Shown: positions 5,818 through 40,227 of the stretch, in pieces | How positions within the stretch are numbered: the first letter of the stretch is position 1 | How the letters are laid out: every line of letters begins with the position of its first letter | Virus genome (UHGV): UHGV-0148877 | Origin: a virus | DNA length: 40,227 nucleotides | Reading direction: 5' to 3' (one strand) | Program-made: the position numbers and the translations under genes | Notes under the pieces: generated by a model | What the model was told of the DNA's origin: nothing | The model's database searches: none | What the model saw: the letters and a program-made list of their open reading frames with translations, nothing else

Positions 5818-6082
5818 TTTACATCGCACTCCTCTTGTGCCATAGTAATCGGGCACTGGCAAAATCCAGTGCCGGGATTGGCGTCCCGAGTTACTACAGA
5901 GGCACATATGCCGCATAAGCGGTTTTTTTATGTGTAAAGCGCACCTATTCTATGGTGGGCTGTGTGGGGGCACCGAAAGGTGCGCCGGGTCCTTTGTAGC
6001 CGGTTACGCCAACCCTGCACAGTTCACCACCAACCGATTGGCGTCGGTAGTGGTGATTAACCTAACTACAAAGGTGATCGCT

Positions 6083-24812: not shown

Positions 24813-24889
24813 GTGGCATTAGCTCAGTTGGACAGAGCAACCGCCTTCTAAGCGGTTGGTCGCAGGTTCGAATCCTGCATGCCACGCCA
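24813..24889 (+). tRNA. tRNA-Arg (anticodon UCU)
   Basis: 77 nt folded by hand: 7-bp acceptor stem GTGGCAT/ATGCCAC, D stem GCTC/GAGC, anticodon stem ACCGC/GCGGT with loop CTTCTAA (anticodon TCT), T stem GCAGG/CCTGC with loop TTCGAAT, discriminator G, encoded CCA. Confidence 0.9.
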
Positions 24890-34013: not shown

Positions 34014-34598
34014 ATGAAAAGTATCCAGGACGTCCGCAGGCAAAATCTCAACGACTTGATCGACCGTGAATTCAATGGTGTTCAGACGCGGATGGCTGAA
34101 AAACTTGGAACTCAGGCAAATCTGGTAAACCGCTGGGCTCTTGGCAAGAAGGTTATCGGCGACCAGGTTGCGCGAAAAATTGAAGCTGCCGCCAATAAAC
34201 CCCGTAACTGGCTTGATATCGATCGCTCGCTTTCTCAGGAAGGTTTTCAGCCTGTCGGCCCGAGTGATATAGGTCAGCTGGCTGCTCACAACCTGGAACG
34301 CTGGATGAGCGAAAGCCGCGACCTTTCAACGCAGGGAAAACTACACCGCGCATCCGGCGTCGCCCAGGTGACAATCAGCCGCCTGTTAAACAATGAGGTC
34401 AGCGTTTCCATTTCCACCCTGGAGAATGTTGCATCCGCATTCGGGCGTCATGGCTATGAATTACTGATTCACCCGCACGACCCTGCGACTATCAACTATG
34501 ACCGCTCGCGCTACGCATTGTTACCCGAAACCGAGAAAGCAAAGATCGAAAGTTACATTGAATTTGTCATCAACCAGAACGAAAAAAACAAACAATAA
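34014..34598 (+). CDS. Prophage repressor (CI-like, HTH; no S24 peptidase domain evident)
   Basis: 194 aa; N-terminal HTH (GVQTRMAEKLGTQANLVNRWALGKK) and a second HTH-like segment (ASGVAQVTISRLLNNE); divergent from cro-like gene; flanked by operator clusters; followed by a terminator. Confidence 0.7.
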   Translation: MKSIQDVRRQNLNDLIDREFNGVQTRMAEKLGTQANLVNRWALGKKVIGDQVARKIEAAANKPRNWLDIDRSLSQEGFQPVGPSDIGQLAAHNLERWMSESRDLSTQGKLHRASGVAQVTISRLLNNEVSVSISTLENVASAFGRHGYELLIHPHDPATINYDRSRYALLPETEKAKIESYIEFVINQNEKNKQ

Positions 34599-34616
34599 AA
34601 TCATATTTTTCAGTAA

Positions 34617-34643
34617 GTAAGCCGCCTTCTGGCGGCTTTTTTA
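34617..34643 (+). terminator. Intrinsic terminator after the repressor gene
   Basis: GCCGCC-TTCT-GGCGGC hairpin followed by TTTTTTATT. Confidence 0.65.
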
Positions 34644-34654
34644 TTGCCTACTCG

Positions 34655-34671
34655 ATTACCTAACGGGTAAT
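34655..34671. promoter_or_regulatory. Operator palindrome ATTACC-TAACG-GGTAAT
   Basis: Perfect 6+6 inverted repeat immediately after the repressor terminator. Confidence 0.55.
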
Positions 34672-34688
34672 TTTTTTAACTCATATCT

Positions 34689-34733
34689 ATTGACATCAAA
34701 CCAGATACGCATAATTATTACCTCAACGGTAAC
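34689..34733 (+). promoter_or_regulatory. Left-arm promoter region with TTGACA and operator ATTACC-TCAAC-GGTAAC
   Basis: TTGACA at 34689-34694; palindrome at 34717-34733; extra GGTAAC half-site at 34741-34746; precedes the first plus-strand early ORF. Confidence 0.5.
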
Positions 34734-34751
34734 AGACCGAGGTAACAAGTT

Positions 34752-34904
34752 ATGCAGTGGAAAATCATCAACGGTTGGTACTGCGTTACTGCATGCGGAT
34801 TCATGAGCTGGAAGTTCCGCACATTACAGGAAGGCATTAAGTGGGCTTTCGTCAGCAAAGAAGCTCGCGATGTAGCCAACGATAACGAGATATGGGAGGG
34901 CTGA
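34752..34904 (+). CDS. Small ORF, first in the left-arm early operon (below the ORF-track cut-off)
   Basis: 50 aa (MQWKIINGWYCVTACGFMSW...), GAGGTAACAAGTT upstream of the ATG; stop 2 nt before the next gene start. Confidence 0.25.
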   Translation: MQWKIINGWYCVTACGFMSWKFRTLQEGIKWAFVSKEARDVANDNEIWEG

Positions 34905-34906
34905 TA

Positions 34907-35206
34907 ATGAACGTTAATCAGCAGAAAAATCTTCAAAAAATCATGCTGGCATTCGACAAGGACTACCGTCTGTCAGAACAGCTATATGACCGACAAGTTG
35001 AACTGATTGAGAGTATCCGGCTTCATCAACTGGCATCAACTTTCGACGTTGTAACAGTTAAAGGCGTTCGCCAGGAAGTACTGGAGGCCGCTAAAGACAG
35101 CCCTGAGTTCGAAGAACTAATGGATGCCTACCGGCGCGAGGCAATGGCAATTATCGCCCGCTGGGATCTGGCTGATCAGCTTGATGGGCAGAGGGACGCG
35201 GCATGA
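34907..35206 (+). CDS. Hypothetical early protein
   Basis: 99 aa from the ATG at 34907 (GGGAGGG RBS); stop overlaps the start of the exonuclease gene (ATGA). Confidence 0.5.
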   Translation: MNVNQQKNLQKIMLAFDKDYRLSEQLYDRQVELIESIRLHQLASTFDVVTVKGVRQEVLEAAKDSPEFEELMDAYRREAMAIIARWDLADQLDGQRDAA

Positions 35207-36024
35207 AACCGGGAATTTATTTCGACATCAGCAACGAAGACTACCACGCCGGTGACGGCGTGAGTAAGTCGCAACTGGACATGGTTGCCAAGAATCCGGC
35301 GCTTCTTAAATGGGTTCAGGCAGCACCAGAAGACGAAGAGAAAAAGTCTGCACTGGATATGGGAACCGCATTGCACTGTCTGCTTCTGGAGCCTGGAGAG
35401 TTCGACAAACGCTTCATTGTTTCACCGAAATTCGATCGTCGGACGAAACAAGGTAAAGCTGACGAAGAGGAATTTCTTCGTGATGTGGCGGATATGGGGA
35501 TTACGGTACTTGATGCCGAGCAGTGGCGGAAACTGGAGCTGATGCGTGATAGCGCAATGGCTCACCCGGCGGCACGCTGGATGCTGGAAGCACCTGGTTA
35601 CTGCGAAGCATCAATGTACTGGAACGATGAAGAGACGGGGGAGTTGTGCCGAATTCGTCCAGACAAATGGCTGAACGAGCACAACGTGATCGTCGACGTG
35701 AAAAAGGTTGCAGATATGGACCGTTTTGCACGCCACATCGAGGAATTCCGCTACCACGTGCAGGACGCAATGTACCGCGAAGGCGCAATGAGGGTTACTG
35801 GTCAGCCGCATGGTTTTTTCTTTCTTGCCGTGAGCGAAAGCATTGATTGTGGTCGGTATCCGGTACGCGTGTTCGAGCTGGATGCGCAGGATGTCGATGC
35901 CGGGCACGCTCTGTTCCGCCGGGATCTGAATACCTATCACGAATGCCGCATCAATGATGAATGGGGCGGTGTGGAAATCATTAAACGCCCTGAGTGGGCA
36001 CGCAAACAGGATATGTACATATGA
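35203..36024 (+). CDS. PD-(D/E)XK-family exonuclease (RecE-like recombination partner)
   Basis: 273 aa; motif IRPDKW...VIVDVKKV consistent with a PD-(D/E)XK nuclease; translationally coupled (ATGA) to the RecT gene. Confidence 0.65.
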   Translation: MKPGIYFDISNEDYHAGDGVSKSQLDMVAKNPALLKWVQAAPEDEEKKSALDMGTALHCLLLEPGEFDKRFIVSPKFDRRTKQGKADEEEFLRDVADMGITVLDAEQWRKLELMRDSAMAHPAARWMLEAPGYCEASMYWNDEETGELCRIRPDKWLNEHNVIVDVKKVADMDRFARHIEEFRYHVQDAMYREGAMRVTGQPHGFFFLAVSESIDCGRYPVRVFELDAQDVDAGHALFRRDLNTYHECRINDEWGGVEIIKRPEWARKQDMYI

Positions 36025-36962
36025 GCAACGACATCGCAAACATCAACGCACCAGTAGACACAGCAATCGCTGGAACTGCTGCAACTATTTTCAGCCCAGA
36101 CGGCTTGAACCAACTGATGAAATTCGCCGAGGTAATGGCGCAAAGCCGCGTAACTGTACCGGCGCACCTCGCCGGGAAACCAGCTGATTGCATGGCCGTG
36201 GCAATGCAGGCTGCGCAGTGGGGAATGAACCCGTTTGCCGTGGCTCAGAAAACCCATGTTGTGAACGGCACGCTAGGTTATGAAGCCCAATTAGTAAACG
36301 CAGTTATCTCAACGATGTCGCCAACAAAAGATCGCATCAACTACGAGTGGTTCGGGCCGTGGGAACGCGTGATCGGTAAGTTTGTTGAGAAAACATCCAA
36401 AAACGGCAATCCATATATCGCACCAGGCTGGACTCTAAAAGACGAAGAAGGCTGCGGTGTTCGCGTATGGGCAACCATGAAGGGCGAGGATCAACCTCGA
36501 GTGCTTGAGTTAATGCTGTCTCAAGCACAGGTAAGAAACTCCACACTTTGGGCCAGTGATCCGAAACAACAACTCGCATACCTTGCGACAAAACGCTGGT
36601 CTCGCCTGCACTGTCCTGACGTAATCATGGGCGTCTACACCCCAGACGAATTACAGGAAACGGCACCGCGCGTTGAGCGAGACATTACTCCGCAAACGAC
36701 CACTGCTGCGGGAATGAACAGTCTGATCAACGCTAAACCAGCGAAAAAGCCTGATGAGCAAACGCGTAAATCGGACAGCCGTGATCCAGAAGAAATGCTG
36801 ATGGCCTTTACCAGCGCAGCGATTAATTACAGCACTGTCTCCGAACTGGATAAGGCTTACAAATACATTGCACAAAAACTTTCAGATGATGACGAACTGC
36901 TGGCAAAAGCCACCGACGTTTACAGCGTTCGTCGGGAAGAATTAAACGAAACATCTATGTAA
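36021..36962 (+). CDS. recT: RecT-family single-strand annealing protein
   Basis: About 313 aa from the ATG at 36021; conserved-looking RecT core (NPFAVAQKTHVVNGTLGYEAQL..., LWASDPKQQLAYLATKRW) and acidic C-terminus; paired with the upstream exonuclease. Confidence 0.8.
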   Translation: MSNDIANINAPVDTAIAGTAATIFSPDGLNQLMKFAEVMAQSRVTVPAHLAGKPADCMAVAMQAAQWGMNPFAVAQKTHVVNGTLGYEAQLVNAVISTMSPTKDRINYEWFGPWERVIGKFVEKTSKNGNPYIAPGWTLKDEEGCGVRVWATMKGEDQPRVLELMLSQAQVRNSTLWASDPKQQLAYLATKRWSRLHCPDVIMGVYTPDELQETAPRVERDITPQTTTAAGMNSLINAKPAKKPDEQTRKSDSRDPEEMLMAFTSAAINYSTVSELDKAYKYIAQKLSDDDELLAKATDVYSVRREELNETSM

Positions 36963-37011
36963 CCACCACCGCGGCGCCACGCGCGCCGCACTGCAACCAA
37001 GAGAGGTATTT

Positions 37012-37260
37012 ATGAAAGGTGCATTAGGTAAGAAGGAACTCCTGGCGGTGGTTCCACTGTCATGGAGCACTATCGACCGTATGGAGCGCGCAGGGGAATT
37101 TCCTAAACGCTGGTATATCACCGATAAACGCTGCGCATGGAACCGTGATGAAGTTGAGCGTTGGCTTGATGAACGTCAGGCAGCAAGCCCGGCAGAGTTC
37201 CAGGGTAAAAAGCCTCCTGTTCAGCAACGTGTATATCGTCCCGTGAGCAACGCTGCATGA
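37012..37260 (+). CDS. AlpA-family transcriptional regulator / excisionase-like protein
   Basis: 82 aa; LLAVVPLSWSTIDRMERAGEFPKRWYITDKRCAWNRDEVERWL matches the AlpA/Xis small HTH pattern. Confidence 0.7.
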   Translation: MKGALGKKELLAVVPLSWSTIDRMERAGEFPKRWYITDKRCAWNRDEVERWLDERQAASPAEFQGKKPPVQQRVYRPVSNAA

Positions 37261-37373
37261 GTGAGCTGCTAAGGCACTGGAGCAAATGGTCAGGATGGTA
37301 CTTATTCCTGGCCTCTGTTTCAGCATGGCTTTATCTACTGGCATTAATTTTCAGAGAGGGTTGGATTAAGTGA
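37257..37373 (+). CDS. Small hydrophobic peptide (below the ORF-track cut-off)
   Basis: 38 aa (MSELLRHWSKWSGWYLFLASVSAWLYLLALIFREGWIK), one predicted TM helix; ATG overlaps the AlpA stop (ATGA) and its stop overlaps the next start (GTGA). Confidence 0.25.
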   Translation: MSELLRHWSKWSGWYLFLASVSAWLYLLALIFREGWIK

Positions 37374-37669
37374 GAAAGTTAAGCCGACTTGAAAAATATC
37401 ACATGAATAAGGTTTCAATGCGCAGTCCGTCAAAGATTGTCGCCGTTACTCCTGCGGCGATAGAGATCGAAAAACGCGCGATTGAAAGAGAGAAAAAAGG
37501 GCAATTCCGCATTGCCGCTCACCTTTGGCTTCAGTGTATGGATGTTGCTTCTGGTGATGTTGAACGTGCAAGGATCGCGGTTCGCAGGGACCAATGTATC
37601 ACAAAAGGTAACGGCCTTCGCCGTGGCGACTATAGCGGAATAGGATGTTGTGGGGTGGTTTATGACTAA
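37370..37669 (+). CDS. Small regulator-like protein (PerC/ANR-like pattern)
   Basis: 99 aa; AAHLWLQCMDVASGDVERARIAVRRDQCI resembles the A-x2-LW-x2-C...ER...AR...C pattern I recall for small PerC/ANR-type regulators; low-confidence family call. Confidence 0.35.
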   Translation: MRKLSRLEKYHMNKVSMRSPSKIVAVTPAAIEIEKRAIEREKKGQFRIAAHLWLQCMDVASGDVERARIAVRRDQCITKGNGLRRGDYSGIGCCGVVYD

Positions 37670-38312
37670 GAAATACACACTAATCTATGCAGATCCACCC
37701 TGGGTATACCGGGACAAAGCCGCAGATGGTAATCGCGGTGCCGGTTTTAAATATCCGGTTATGAGTGTGCTGGATATCTGCCGCCTTCCTGTGTGGGATT
37801 TGGCCGATGAAAACTGTCTGTTGGCCATGTGGTGGGTGCCAACACAACCACTCGAAGCACTAAAAGTTGTTGAAGCCTGGGGATTCCGTCTGATGACGAT
37901 GAAGGGCTTCACGTGGATAAAATGTGGTAGTCGACAACCAGATAAACTGGTTATGGGTATGGGACACATGACTCGCGCCAATAGTGAAGATTGCCTGTTT
38001 GCGGTAAAGGGAAAACTACCTACGCGCATTAATGCAGGGATCGTTCAGTCATTTACCGCACCGCGGCTTGAGCATTCAAGAAAGCCAGATATCGTTCGTG
38101 AAAAACTTGTGCAATTATTAGGCGATGTTTCTCGCATTGAACTGTTCGCCCGCCAGACGTCTCATGGATTCGATGTTTGGGGTAATCAGTGCGAAGACCC
38201 GGCAGTGCAACTACACCCTGGATACGCGTTGGATATCGGCGGATTAACAAATGCATTCAGCAATGCTCCGCTGTCACCAACAGACAACCAGGGGCGGGAG
38301 CGTGCAGCATGA
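37662..38312 (+). CDS. MT-A70-family N6-adenine DNA methyltransferase (orphan)
   Basis: About 216 aa from the ATG at 37662; catalytic DPPW motif (YADPPWVY) near the N-terminus; no restriction-endonuclease-like gene adjacent. Confidence 0.85.
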
Positions 38313-38968
38313 ACCTATATCAACGCATCAATGGCGCTGACTGGTGCAATATCTTCGTCGTCGGCGATCTGCATGGGTGCTACACGCTGCTGATGAACGA
38401 ACTCGACAAAGTTTCATTCGACCCGGCGCGCGATTTGCTTATTTCCGTTGGTGACCTTGTTGACCGCGGCGCTGAAAACGTCGAATGCCTGGATTTGATT
38501 ACTATGCCGTGGTTCCGAGCTGTTCGTGGCAACCATGAGCAGATGATGCTGGATGCACTGGTCAACGGCGGAAGTTTCGGACATTGGATGTCAAACGGCG
38601 GTGGATGGTGGCACCAACTTGATTCTGAGCAGGATGTGCAACTCAAATACCTTCTGCCAAAGGTTGCCAACCTCCCGATGATTATCGAACTGGTTACCGG
38701 CAATAAGAAGGTCGTCATCTGCCACGCAGACTACCCGCACAACGAATACGCATTCGATAAGCCAGTACCGGAAGAAATGGTGATATGGAATCGTGAGCGG
38801 GTTAGCGACGCGCAGGACGGTATTGTCTCGGAGATAACCGGTGCCGATTTGTTCATCTTCGGTCATACGCCAGCACATCACCCACTGGTGTATGCAAACC
38901 AAATGTACATCGACACCGGCGCAGTGTTCTGCGGAAATCTGACGCTTACCAAAGTCCAGGAAGGATAG
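38309..38968 (+). CDS. Ser/Thr protein phosphatase (lambda-phosphatase / calcineurin-like family)
   Basis: About 219 aa from the ATG at 38309 (overlaps MTase stop); metallophosphatase motifs GDLHG, GDLVDRG, GNHE. Confidence 0.85.
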
Positions 38969-38970
38969 AA

Positions 38971-40227
38971 TTATTTATTACTGTCTTCCATCCACTTCTC
39001 AAACTTCGACGGGGAGAACGGAATCAGATCCGTATGCTCCCCGTCAATCCAGGAATCAATCATATCTGCCCACTGCTGCAACATGTAGGCGCGCTGTCTG
39101 GCGTATTCCGCTTTGTTATATACGGCGCGCACACCTTTCTGCTCATGTGCCAGAGCCTTTTCAATCCAGTCTGAAGGATAACCAGCCTCATGCAACAACG
39201 TACTGGCTGTACGGCGCATATCGTGTACGGTGAAGTCCTGAATATGCTCACCATCTTCATTTATTATTTTCACCGTTCTGTCGATCAGAGAGTTCAACGC
39301 GGCATTAGATAATGGCTTACGGAAATTGTAACGACCAGGAACCAGGTATTCACTTCCACCAGCGCACATCTGCAACCCGACCAATATATCCTGTGCCTGT
39401 TTAGGCAGGTAAATAACGTGCGCCCGGCTTCCTTTCATGCGGTCTGAAGGAATTGTCCATGTCCATTTTTTAAAATCTATTTCATCCCACGTTGCATTGG
39501 TGAATTCGCCTTTACGAACCATAGTGATAAGCACCAACTTTAAAGCCATTTTCATAGTGCCCATAGCACCAATGGCATCCAGCGTGCGGAAGAACAGGCC
39601 AATTTCTTCTGGCGTCAGTGTTCGCTCTCGTGGTTTAAATATGGCGATAGACGAAGGTTTAATGTCAGCCGCAGGATTAAACAAACCATGACCACGGTCA
39701 TTGGCGTGACGGTATACGCTGCTGATGATCTCCCTGGCCTGCACTGCTGTTGCCCGACCACCGCGTTCGACAATCCGGTCACACAAATCACGAACCATCG
39801 ATGTGGTAATTTCAGTCATCATTTTGTTGCCAAGAACCGGAAGTATGTCACGGTCGATCACCGCCTGCTTCATTGCGCGGGTACTGTCAGCCAGGATGAC
39901 ATGTTTCATATAACTGTCGGTATGTACCGCAAACGTCTCGGCACCACGAATCTTTTTGATACCGTCACGTTTAGCCGCAGCCGGCGACTGGCCTGCTTTA
40001 AGCAGCTTCTTTGCAGCAATCAGTTCTTCTCGCGCTTCTGCCAGGCTGATACCGTCACGCCCATACTGCCCGATTACCAGTGTTTCGCGGCGACCGTTGA
40101 TACGGTAGTCATAGCGAAACGAGACCGTGCCTGACGTAAGCACAGCTACATACAGCCCGTCACGATCGGAGACCTTATAAAGTTTGTCCTGCGGCTTGAG
40201 GTTTTTTAATTTTGTATCGGTAAGCAC
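38971..40227 (-). CDS. int: Tyrosine integrase (site-specific recombinase)
   Basis: 418 aa; N-terminus LTDTKLKNLKPQDK...SFRYDYRINGRRETL and C-terminal catalytic region (HDMRRT...HE...Y) typical of phage integrases; ORF starts at the window edge (GTG), so the first codon is uncertain. Confidence 0.85.
   Translation of the reverse strand: MLTDTKLKNLKPQDKLYKVSDRDGLYVAVLTSGTVSFRYDYRINGRRETLVIGQYGRDGISLAEAREELIAAKKLLKAGQSPAAAKRDGIKKIRGAETFAVHTDSYMKHVILADSTRAMKQAVIDRDILPVLGNKMMTEITTSMVRDLCDRIVERGGRATAVQAREIISSVYRHANDRGHGLFNPAADIKPSSIAIFKPRERTLTPEEIGLFFRTLDAIGAMGTMKMALKLVLITMVRKGEFTNATWDEIDFKKWTWTIPSDRMKGSRAHVIYLPKQAQDILVGLQMCAGGSEYLVPGRYNFRKPLSNAALNSLIDRTVKIINEDGEHIQDFTVHDMRRTASTLLHEAGYPSDWIEKALAHEQKGVRAVYNKAEYARQRAYMLQQWADMIDSWIDGEHTDLIPFSPSKFEKWMEDSNK

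Follow-up and report, generated by a model that had tools for sequence, protein, structure and literature searches.

Two small and very probably genuine genes in the early-left operon of an epsilon15/phiV10-like Escherichia coli prophage

Do two short open reading frames in the early region of a temperate phage, ORF-A (50 aa) and ORF-B (38 aa), code for proteins, and what might such proteins do? The question was raised by a stretch of 40,227 nucleotides (UHGV virus genome UHGV-0148877, here called the window), which is an epsilon15/phiV10-like (Uetakevirus) temperate podovirus prophage integrated in E. coli. Open frames of this size are not rare by chance, with probabilities of (61/64)^38 = 0.16 for 38 codons and (61/64)^50 = 0.09 for 50 codons, so the case for genes has to be made from conservation and not from openness. 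On that evidence both are very probably genuine coding genes that belong to the early-left (PL-type) operon, ORF-A being the ortholog of epsilon15 gp37 and phiV10 PhiV10p39, and ORF-B that of gp32 and PhiV10p35. This high confidence covers the genes and their family assignment; the functional proposals below lie outside it.

Table 1. Features of the early-left region, in window coordinates
Feature	Position	Strand	Basis
Intrinsic terminator, end of repressor gene (34014-34598)	34619..34646	+	Directly upstream of early-left promoter
Early-left promoter and operators	34655..34733	+	Promoter scan, palindrome count, epsilon15 record
ORF-A, 50 aa, first cistron of early-left operon	34752..34904	+	phrog_898, conservation, prior annotation
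99-aa gene, epsilon15 gp36-like	34907..35206	+	phrog_856 (E=5e-55); annotated in phiV10 and by PGAP
PD-(D/E)XK exonuclease	35203-36024	+	ORF list; annotation of identical DNA
RecT	36021-36962	+	ORF list; annotation of identical DNA
GC-rich hairpin GCGGCGC-CACGC-GCGCCGC	36971..36989	+	Between RecT and alpA
alpA-family gene, 82 aa	37012..37260	+	PF05930 E=3.1e-5; phrog_66 E=2e-16
ORF-B, 38 aa, predicted single-pass membrane peptide	37257..37373	+	phrog_17484, conservation, prior annotation
perC-like gene, 99 aa, GTG start 37370	37370..37669	+	PF06069 E=6e-7; phrog_868 E=5.7e-62

The layout of the region is given in Table 1. An earlier note on this DNA had placed a promoter/operator before ORF-A, and a sigma-70 promoter with flanking operators was confirmed there: the promoter scan returned a -35 box TTGACA (34690-34695) and a -10 box AATTAT (34713-34718) separated by 17 nt, a 10/12 match, with one ATTACC-N5-GGTAAT palindrome on either side, ATTACCTAACGGGTAAT at 34655-34671 and ATTACCTCAACGGTAAC at 34717-34733. 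This palindrome motif was counted 15 times in the whole window against 1.2 expected, and three repressor sites are annotated at the same place in the epsilon15 record. The terminator has an 8-bp stem with 6 GC pairs and a T run after it, and a rho-independent terminator is annotated at the equivalent place in the phiV10 record. The exonuclease and RecT form a recombination pair (35203..36962) linked by 4-nt overlaps. The hairpin that follows marks the only sizeable intercistronic gap seen within the operon part 34752-38968; its RNA fold (-17.3 kcal/mol, z -1.65) is not significant, and its equivalent is labelled 'transcriptional pausing' in the epsilon15 record. The product of the alpA-family gene is likely an excisionase/regulator.

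ORF-A lies exactly where the earlier note had seen it, between the promoter/operator and the first annotated gene, with its ATG at 34752, a TGA at 34902-34904 and the Shine-Dalgarno (SD) sequence GAGGT (34739-34743) 8 nt before the ATG. The gene that the note counted as the first annotated one is the 99-aa gene at 34907..35206. The ORF-A product (WP_001198620.1) is 100% identical to PhiV10p39 (YP_512294.1) and 79% identical to epsilon15 gp37, and its residues 1-50 align with positions 1-50 of the 50 in phrog_898 (E=1.9e-38). It shares with these two proteins its size and its position after the promoter/operators, and no substantive difference was found, the window copy being an ordinary member of the family. 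ORF-A heads the operon, behind the repressor gene and early-left promoter, in annotated loci of phages and of E. coli, and likewise in the metagenomic loci and the Citrobacter werkmanii and Pseudocitrobacter prophages where it was located; in two loci (L014 and L016) it comes second, with one extra 50-aa gene ahead. The promoter region upstream has been swapped between lineages, and ORF-A is conserved from its start codon on. The tight coupling proposed for it held only in part: ORF-A does contain, in its 3' end, the SD of the next gene (GGGAGGG, 34894-34900; ATG 34907), but in the window the two genes do not overlap.

For ORF-B, the 38-aa hydrophobic frame proposed between the AlpA and PerC-like genes was found as described (ATG 37257, TGA 37371-37373), with the predicted overlaps at both ends, ATGA at 37257-37260 with the alpA stop and GTGA at 37370-37373 with the perC start. 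Its residues 1-38 match phrog_17484 over positions 1-38 of 38 (E=1.4e-26), with identities of 97% to PhiV10p35 (YP_512290.1; Q286Y2) and 79% to epsilon15 gp32. The overlaps are kept along with the frame: among 16 diverged loci the upstream one is ATGA or GTGA in all 16 and the downstream one is (A/G)TGA in 15, and both ATGA and GTGA are present at 80/80 ORF-B loci in IMG/VR. Metagenomic and Citrobacter/Pseudocitrobacter relatives with as little as 54% identity also retain the synteny and the overlaps, and the alpA-orfB-perC block stays unchanged while surrounding genes come and go.

Both frames were present in every relative examined, from Escherichia, Salmonella, Klebsiella, Enterobacter, Citrobacter and Pseudocitrobacter. 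ORF-A was found in 36 phage records, ORF-B in 35 plus a diverged copy in BUCT554, and this type of perC in 36; the three sets have the same host breakdown, and the listed records coincide. An exhaustive phmmer search of 1.84 billion representative proteins returned only 6 relatives, and a scan of species-representative genomes returned only Citrobacter, Pseudocitrobacter and Klebsiella prophages together with one likely false match. In IMG/VR, ORF-A was intact in 72/72 copies, with polymorphic sites distributed 2/2/10 over the three codon positions, and ORF-B in 80/80 (0/1/6). The earlier note had proposed conservation and dN/dS as a check, and had named loss of the reading frames in homologous regions as evidence against the genes; both were run, the frames are kept, and the outcome favours both genes. 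Pooled Nei-Gojobori counts put dN/dS at 0.12 for the sense frame of ORF-A (codons 1-35), compared with 0.32-1.9 for the five remaining frames; for ORF-B it was 0.19-0.23, compared with 0.32-1.7 in other frames. The neighbours gave 0.10 (alpA) and 0.12 (perC) by the same measure. Purifying selection acts on ORF-A (codons 1-35) and on ORF-B in the proposed frames only. The tail of ORF-A has a pN/pS of 0.66 and exists in frame-shifted versions; from these comparisons, selection on this protein is limited to the first ~35 residues, the tail evolving freely and mainly housing the ribosome-binding site of the next gene.

The same measurements bear on other ways of reading the two frames. An antisense gene of 72 aa (34718-34936, minus strand) is annotated in place of ORF-A in the YDC107_2 and Tyrion (gp39) records, and ORF-A could be its shadow, since the antisense frame that shares third codon positions with ORF-A is open in all lineages. 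Its dN/dS is nevertheless 0.32, the value expected of a shadow frame, against 0.12 for the sense frame; its stop-to-stop extent (52-164 codons) and its first start codon vary by lineage, and it would enter the PL promoter and has no SD, whereas ORF-A runs in the operon's direction from a fixed ATG behind a strong SD. The dN/dS and the variable extent lead us to reject the antisense gene, to which we leave hardly any chance. At the other end, ORF-B would be no gene if perC in truth began at ATG 37295 in its own frame and so covered most of ORF-B. Versions of 122-124 aa are annotated in PAT1, vB_KpnP_BUCT711, ST512-KPC3phi13.3 and VB_ST_E15, and most relatives outside E. coli have 28-101 stop-free codons in the perC frame ahead of its start. 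In the window, in phiV10 and in the other decoded E. coli-type loci, however, a TAA (37367-37369) shuts this frame just before GTG 37370; the junction I-K-stop with GTGA is found in 80/80 IMG/VR copies, and in BUCT554 perC is in a wholly different frame. The upstream part of the perC frame has a dN/dS of 1.35-1.67, indicating no protein constraint, against the 0.19-0.23 of ORF-B, and, counted from GTG 37370, the product covers the 99-residue PHROG profile of this perC type in full (1-99 of 99). The 16 N-terminal residues of perC counted from 37370 are conserved as protein in all relatives, with an ATG start at that place. These findings bring the longer perC close to refutation, and it is exceedingly improbable.

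A subtler alternative accepts that the frames are translated and takes the peptides themselves to be functionless, ORF-A serving as a leader and ORF-B as a bridge that deliver ribosomes to the genes downstream. In both ORFs the last codons do contain the SD of the gene downstream (codons 33-35 of ORF-B, AGAGAGGGT, are also the SD of perC), the GTG start of perC is weak in the E. coli lineage, and the tail of ORF-A is relaxed and tolerates frame-shifted versions. Part of the conservation at the 3' ends of ORF-A and ORF-B may accordingly come from the embedded SD rather than from the peptide. Against this reading, amino-acid purifying selection spans the whole of ORF-B and residues 1-35 of ORF-A and is as strong as in the neighbouring genes, and synonymous sites, with a pS of 0.52-0.59, show no reduction in divergence and hence no sign of RNA-level constraint. 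In BUCT554, ORF-B is diverged (dN 0.6) and uncoupled from perC, which lies in another frame preceded by GAGAGGAT, possibly an SD of its own; yet the open frame of ORF-B and its hydrophobic helix are kept. We consider functionless peptides quite improbable. An RNA element overlapping the ORFs was ruled out by the normal synonymous divergence and by the absence of any Rfam family match in 34600-37700.

If ORF-A and ORF-B are thus taken as genes for functional products, their predicted structures give some indication of what the products may be. ORF-A is not a membrane peptide. Its AlphaFold2 model from 25 sequences is beta-beta-beta-alpha with a pLDDT of 68.7, a moderate confidence, and a model from a shallower alignment had two helices instead; with moderate confidence, the first ~35 residues may fold as a three-stranded sheet with a helix. 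The motif V-T-A-C at residues 12-15 does not make it a lipoprotein, as Cys15 is Ser in five relatives (L012, L013, P0048, P0050 and P0053) and residues 5-11 form no hydrophobic core. ORF-B is predicted to be a hydrophobic peptide with a single helix long enough to span a membrane. The best 19-residue window of the copy studied here is residues 14-32, with a mean Kyte-Doolittle value of 1.92, and the mean is 1.6-2.3 across 16 lineages (residues 16-34 in L013 and L015). With charges of +1 to +3 in the N-terminal flank and 0 to +1 in the C-terminal one, the topology is ambiguous.

Database searches for a function matched only the PHROG families. Neither ORF had a match in Pfam, NCBIfam or PADLOC, and no toxin family was matched in Pfam or NCBIfam; at E<=1 there was no Pfam match to Lambda_CIII (PF02061) or Kil (PF06301) and no match to the PADLOC defence profiles. 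Searches of solved structures by sequence returned only chance matches (E about 1), and a literature search by accession or locus tag found no paper naming the two proteins. For the earlier note's idea that small membrane peptides of this kind are often host-killing or cell-division-inhibiting factors, these searches gave no evidence in either direction.

Among known proteins, ORF-A was compared with lambda CIII, an FtsH inhibitor. As a counterpart of CIII, ORF-A would be an early-left product that inhibits FtsH and tips the lysis-lysogeny decision. The sizes are similar (50 aa against 54 aa), both genes are small and lie upstream of recombination genes in an early-left operon, and a faint resemblance can be seen by eye, MQ[YW]xI..GW at the N-terminus and R.L.[DE]G.K in the middle of the protein. 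Homology is nevertheless rejected by BLASTP, which gave no alignment, and by profile-profile comparison, in which hhalign gave a probability of 0.5% (25-sequence ORF-A alignment against a 26-sequence CIII alignment); neither family similarity nor the conserved ESLLERITRKLR.GWKRL core of CIII was found in ORF-A by Pfam, BLASTP or hhalign. CIII contains an amphipathic helix segment, and this segment is predicted as beta strands in ORF-A. A CIII-like role is very improbable, a shared function by convergence being conceivable. Lambda Kil, the Caulobacter SidA-type peptides and the type I toxins TisB and Hok are similar in size to the two ORFs, but none of them has sequence similarity to either. 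Kil also shares the location in a phage early-left operon, though as a protein outside the membrane class. A single transmembrane helix, predicted in ORF-B, is common to SidA and the type I toxins. Type I toxins are transcribed from a promoter of their own and paired with an antisense RNA; ORF-B, by contrast, is translationally coupled inside an operon, overlaps both neighbours and lies where no RNA family matches. On these grounds, and with no toxin family matched in Pfam or NCBIfam, it was rejected as a toxin of the Hok, TisB, Ldr or Ibs type.

The arrangement of the genes suggests how they would be expressed. Once the repressor leaves the operators that bracket 34690-34718, the transcript would carry ORF-A, with its strong SD, as first cistron; its product is most likely small and soluble, a protein with a binding or regulatory role that is made first after derepression. 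Ribosomes ending alpA would re-initiate on ORF-B, and those ending ORF-B would re-initiate on perC, so that the three products would be made together. ORF-B would then enter the inner membrane through its one tryptophan-flanked helix (residues 14-32), a face of which has conserved small residues (A19, S22/A23 and A29); this face suggests that ORF-B acts by binding another membrane protein. The partner may belong to the host: it is possible, and we put it forward tentatively as our best guess, that ORF-B hits the division, envelope or protease machinery and disturbs the host transiently. A more specific version, in which ORF-B is a new transmembrane micro-protein made in lock-step with AlpA and PerC that binds a host inner-membrane machine (divisome, FtsH or a transporter) by the small-residue face of its helix, and ORF-A a first-expressed beta-sheet mini-regulator with a new target, is unlikely; if true, excision of the prophage would be linked to a temporary block of division or of envelope function in the host. 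ORF-B could also serve the phage itself, for instance by excluding superinfection at the inner membrane in the lytic cycle or as a tether or modulator of the regulators AlpA/PerC. Other phages are known to encode small early membrane proteins that keep out superinfecting DNA, such as T4 Imm and HK97 gp15, and the linkage of ORF-B to alpA and perC is strict in all lineages. It has no similarity to exclusion proteins or defence models, though, and its gene is within the repressed early operon, so that a lysogen would not be protected by it; we regard such a role as rather improbable. The invariance of the alpA-orfB-perC block makes ORF-B a reasonable and cheap target for toxicity and localisation work.

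Neither ORF is new to public records, in which both are already catalogued as hypothetical proteins (epsilon15 gp37 and gp32, PhiV10p39 and p35, phrog_898 and phrog_17484). For public annotation, the claim that the ORF track had missed them holds only in part: ORF-A is called by PGAP and in most annotated phage records, but PGAP left ORF-B uncalled in the E. coli chromosome record that was examined in full. None of the 30 best-matching E. coli records has a membrane protein in its listing, and ORF-B is annotated ('membrane protein') in the RefSeq records of phiV10, epsilon15, SPN1S and Tyrion; some GenBank phage records have an over-long perC instead. In the fully examined E. coli record, PGAP also starts perC at 37418, 16 codons late with respect to GTG 37370. 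The practical value of the present analysis is in annotation, given the omission of ORF-B, the late perC start and the wrong alternatives in several phage records; the operon is present in about 430 complete E. coli genomes. To a phage specialist, ORF-A and ORF-B will be unsurprising, as two among many conserved phage micro-proteins.

The ORF-B of the window shares with epsilon15 gp32 and PhiV10p35 the length of 38 aa, the one hydrophobic helix and the 4-nt overlaps on both sides, with alpA and with perC. It differs from them in a change of Ala3 to Glu, which is absent from a collection of 15 billion proteins and was seen in only one other sequence, IMG/VR locus L023.

The two small plus-strand frames flagged in the earlier note lie exactly as it described them: ORF-A, first after the early-left promoter, and ORF-B, whose start overlaps the alpA stop codon (ATGA) and whose stop overlaps the perC start codon (GTGA). 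Both are members of the early-left operon of this epsilon15/phiV10-like prophage, where the plus-strand order is repressor gene, terminator, promoter and operators, ORF-A, a 99-aa gene, exonuclease, RecT, alpA, ORF-B, perC, MT-A70 methylase and metallophosphatase. By megablast, 34600-37700 is 93-99.5% identical to Uetakevirus genomes such as phiV10 and the E. coli O157 typing phages 9 and 10, and about 78-81% identical to Enterobacter and Salmonella relatives (Tyrion, SPN1S, epsilon15). The same DNA is carried by 564 of 5426 complete E. coli genomes.

Coordinates of the two frames, their neighbours and other features of the window
Feature	Coordinates	Strand	Remarks
Palindromes ATTACC-N5-GGTAAT	span 1439-34733		e.g. 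4587, 5708, 5801, 6841, 24475, 27273, 27291, 31550, 31612, 33943, 34655, 34717
isrK	5853-5929		Rfam, above gathering score; adjoins C4 antisense RNA
C4 antisense RNA	5948-6034		Rfam, above gathering score
tRNA gene	24813-24886		Rfam, above gathering score
Repressor gene	34014-34598	plus	opens early-left region
Promoter TTGACA-17 nt-AATTAT	34690-34718		upstream of ORF-A; 10/12 positions match
ORF-A	34752-34904	plus	50 aa; dN/dS 0.12 (codons 1-35)
GC hairpin, perfect 7-bp, without U tract	36971-36989		in the 49-nt recT-alpA gap
alpA	37012-37260	plus	dN/dS 0.10
ORF-B	37257-37373	plus	38 aa; dN/dS 0.19-0.23
perC	37370-37669	plus	dN/dS 0.12
Calcineurin-like metallophosphatase	38309-38968	plus	between MT-A70 methylase and integrase; PF00149, E=1e-15
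P4-type integrase	38971-40227	minus	one end of the window, lysis genes at the other

A frame stays open by chance in about 16% of cases for 38 sense codons and about 9% for 50; since openness alone is weak evidence, the case for genes rests on comparison with relatives. Homologous regions were compared from nine phage genomes, one E. coli chromosome, five metagenomic contigs, four species-representative genomes and 80 IMG/VR contigs, the hosts being Escherichia, Salmonella, Klebsiella, Enterobacter, Citrobacter and Pseudocitrobacter. ORF-A was intact in every fetched locus covering its region, and ORF-B in all fetched regions but one, that of K. pneumoniae ATCC 13883, which keeps a deletion remnant. 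In pooled Nei-Gojobori estimates over 8-10 lineages, both frames had dN/dS below that of the five alternative frames of the two ORFs (0.32-1.9). Synonymous divergence was normal (pS 0.52-0.59), so there was no sign of overlapping RNA constraint, and Rfam gave no match in the ORF-A/ORF-B region. In the near-identical E. coli population ORF-B was intact in 80 of 80 copies, each of which had both junctions, ATGA and GTGA; by codon position its polymorphic sites number 0/1/6. ORF-A was intact in 72 of 72, with 2/2/10. The comparison of conservation and dN/dS proposed in the earlier note thus came out in favour of the frames, and its view of both as genuine coupled genes is well supported by intact frames, in-frame selection and kept overlaps.

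Remnants were also seen: a deletion/frameshift product in a degraded E. coli prophage (P0038) fuses ORF-A to ORF-B, another degraded prophage (P0139) has a frameshifted alpA running into ORF-B, and the K. pneumoniae ATCC 13883 locus (L020, 4001-4227) joins ORF-B residues 1-24 to perC from residue 45 onward.

Two competing gene models from public records fail. Four phage records have a perC of 122-124 aa from the equivalent of 37295, swallowing ORF-B, which is read in a different frame. In the E. coli lineage a TAA at 37367-37369 ends this long frame, in BUCT554 it does not match the register of perC, and its dN/dS exceeds 1. Judged by conservation, the true perC start is GTG 37370, because every relative conserves its first 16 residues at the protein level; their perC starts at the ATG within an ATGA overlap, and phrog_868 matches residues 1-99 of 99. 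PGAP puts this start at 37418 in the one E. coli chromosome that was read completely. The other model, an antisense ORF (34718-34936, minus, 72 aa), replaces ORF-A in YDC107_2 and as Tyrion gp39. With a dN/dS of 0.32, versus 0.12 for sense, and ends that vary among lineages, it is by these measures the usual shadow frame.

That the two genes had been missed does not hold as a claim of novelty. ORF-A is 100% identical to PhiV10p39 (YP_512294.1; RefSeq WP_001198620.1) and ORF-B 97% identical to PhiV10p35, with gp37 and gp32 as the epsilon15 counterparts; neither is new, both having long been annotated as hypothetical proteins in a phage genus that is well sampled. It does hold for ORF-B in the one fully read E. 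coli chromosome, where PGAP leaves it uncalled; nor is it listed in any of the best 30 E. coli records. The main useful yield is annotation corrections.

The ORF-A ATG is preceded, 8 nt upstream, by GAGGT. The protein matches phrog_898 end to end (E=1.9e-38), the protein collection has its exact sequence on 1000 contigs or more, and its family comprises 52 clusters, exclusively from Enterobacterales, without names or a Pfam domain. Residues 1-35 are strongly conserved, with a core W-x-I-I-N-G-W-Y-C-V-T followed by G-L-M-S-W-K-F and L-x-E-[AG]-I-x-W-A-F. Constraint on the tail is relaxed (pN/pS 0.66): versions read identical nucleotides in differing frames, and these nucleotides are the SD of the following gene. 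A metal site or lipobox was rejected because the cysteines vary among relatives; a likeness to lambda CIII, seen in operon position and in two short motifs, was rejected on testing. An AlphaFold2 model from 14 sequences was unusable, and one from 25 (pLDDT 68.7) had three strands plus a helix. In two metagenomic relatives an extra 50-aa gene (MKTAHYYASRGTKFLVIGVDGK...) lies between the promoter and the ORF-A homolog (L014 1196-1348, L016 2067-2219); others have a 319-aa or 62-aa gene after ORF-A.

Two of the palindromes bracket the ORF-A promoter. The window holds 15 copies versus 1.2 expected, at both early promoters, around the antirepressor region and at several further places, a spread which suggests repressor control at many points of the prophage; in the epsilon15 record, repressor sites are marked at the position equivalent to the window operators. 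The Salmonella/Klebsiella lineage has a wholly different promoter region, yet ORF-A is conserved from its ATG on. The recT-alpA gap is the one intercistronic gap of sizeable length in this stretch of the operon; the folding energy of its hairpin is unexceptional (z -1.65), and the epsilon15 record labels the equivalent "transcriptional pausing". The metallophosphatase gene overlaps the methylase stop, whereas phiV10 and YDC107 have a DUF1382 gene in its place, a swap that is cargo variation at the operon end.

ORF-B has the character of a membrane helix: an N-terminal flank R-H-W-x-K-W-S-G-W, hydrophobic residues 14-32 (Kyte-Doolittle 1.6-2.3 in all lineages) and a short C-terminal tail ending E-G-W-[IL]-[KR]. 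It matches phrog_17484 end to end (E=1.4e-26), and its ortholog PhiV10p35 is annotated as a membrane protein with one C-terminal transmembrane helix. Positions 19, 22/23 and 29 repeatedly carry small residues, which may form a helix-packing face. Codons 33-35 also serve as the perC SD.

Upon derepression, ORF-A would be the first protein made; ribosomes finishing alpA would restart on ORF-B and then perC, so that the three would be co-produced, and ORF-B would insert into the inner membrane and bind a partner there. A literature search found no paper on either protein, and the host-killing or division-inhibiting function put forward in the earlier note is a guess; that the partner is a host machine is a tentative proposal, rather doubtful as it stands. 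That ORF-B serves the phage itself, for instance in exclusion or in tethering a regulator, seems less probable still. Least probable is that the frames are mainly couplers. The alpA-orfB-perC block keeps both 4-nt overlaps while its flanking genes vary (HNH, DUF1317, winged-helix, DGQHR, Dam or MT-A70), the exception being BUCT554, where the ORF-B peptide is divergent (dN 0.6), stops early and has lost its coupling to perC. Because a hydrophobic ORF is kept there nonetheless, this genome argues, at the sequence level, that the ORF-B peptide itself matters and not coupling alone.

ORF-A, ORF-B and this perC type are each found in 35-36 phage records with equal host breakdown, apparently one set. 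Searched exhaustively, a set of 1.84 billion representative proteins yielded only six relatives of ORF-B, with identical genomic context where checked. The window has Glu3 in ORF-B (37263-37265), a position that is Ala in nearly all E. coli copies and Val in two; elsewhere the Glu form was seen only in the IMG/VR contig IMGVR_UViG_3300045988_084410 (L023). The large protein collection contains the Ala3 and Salmonella forms but lacks Glu3. Outside the operon, the isrK and C4 pair points to an immI-type antisense control region.
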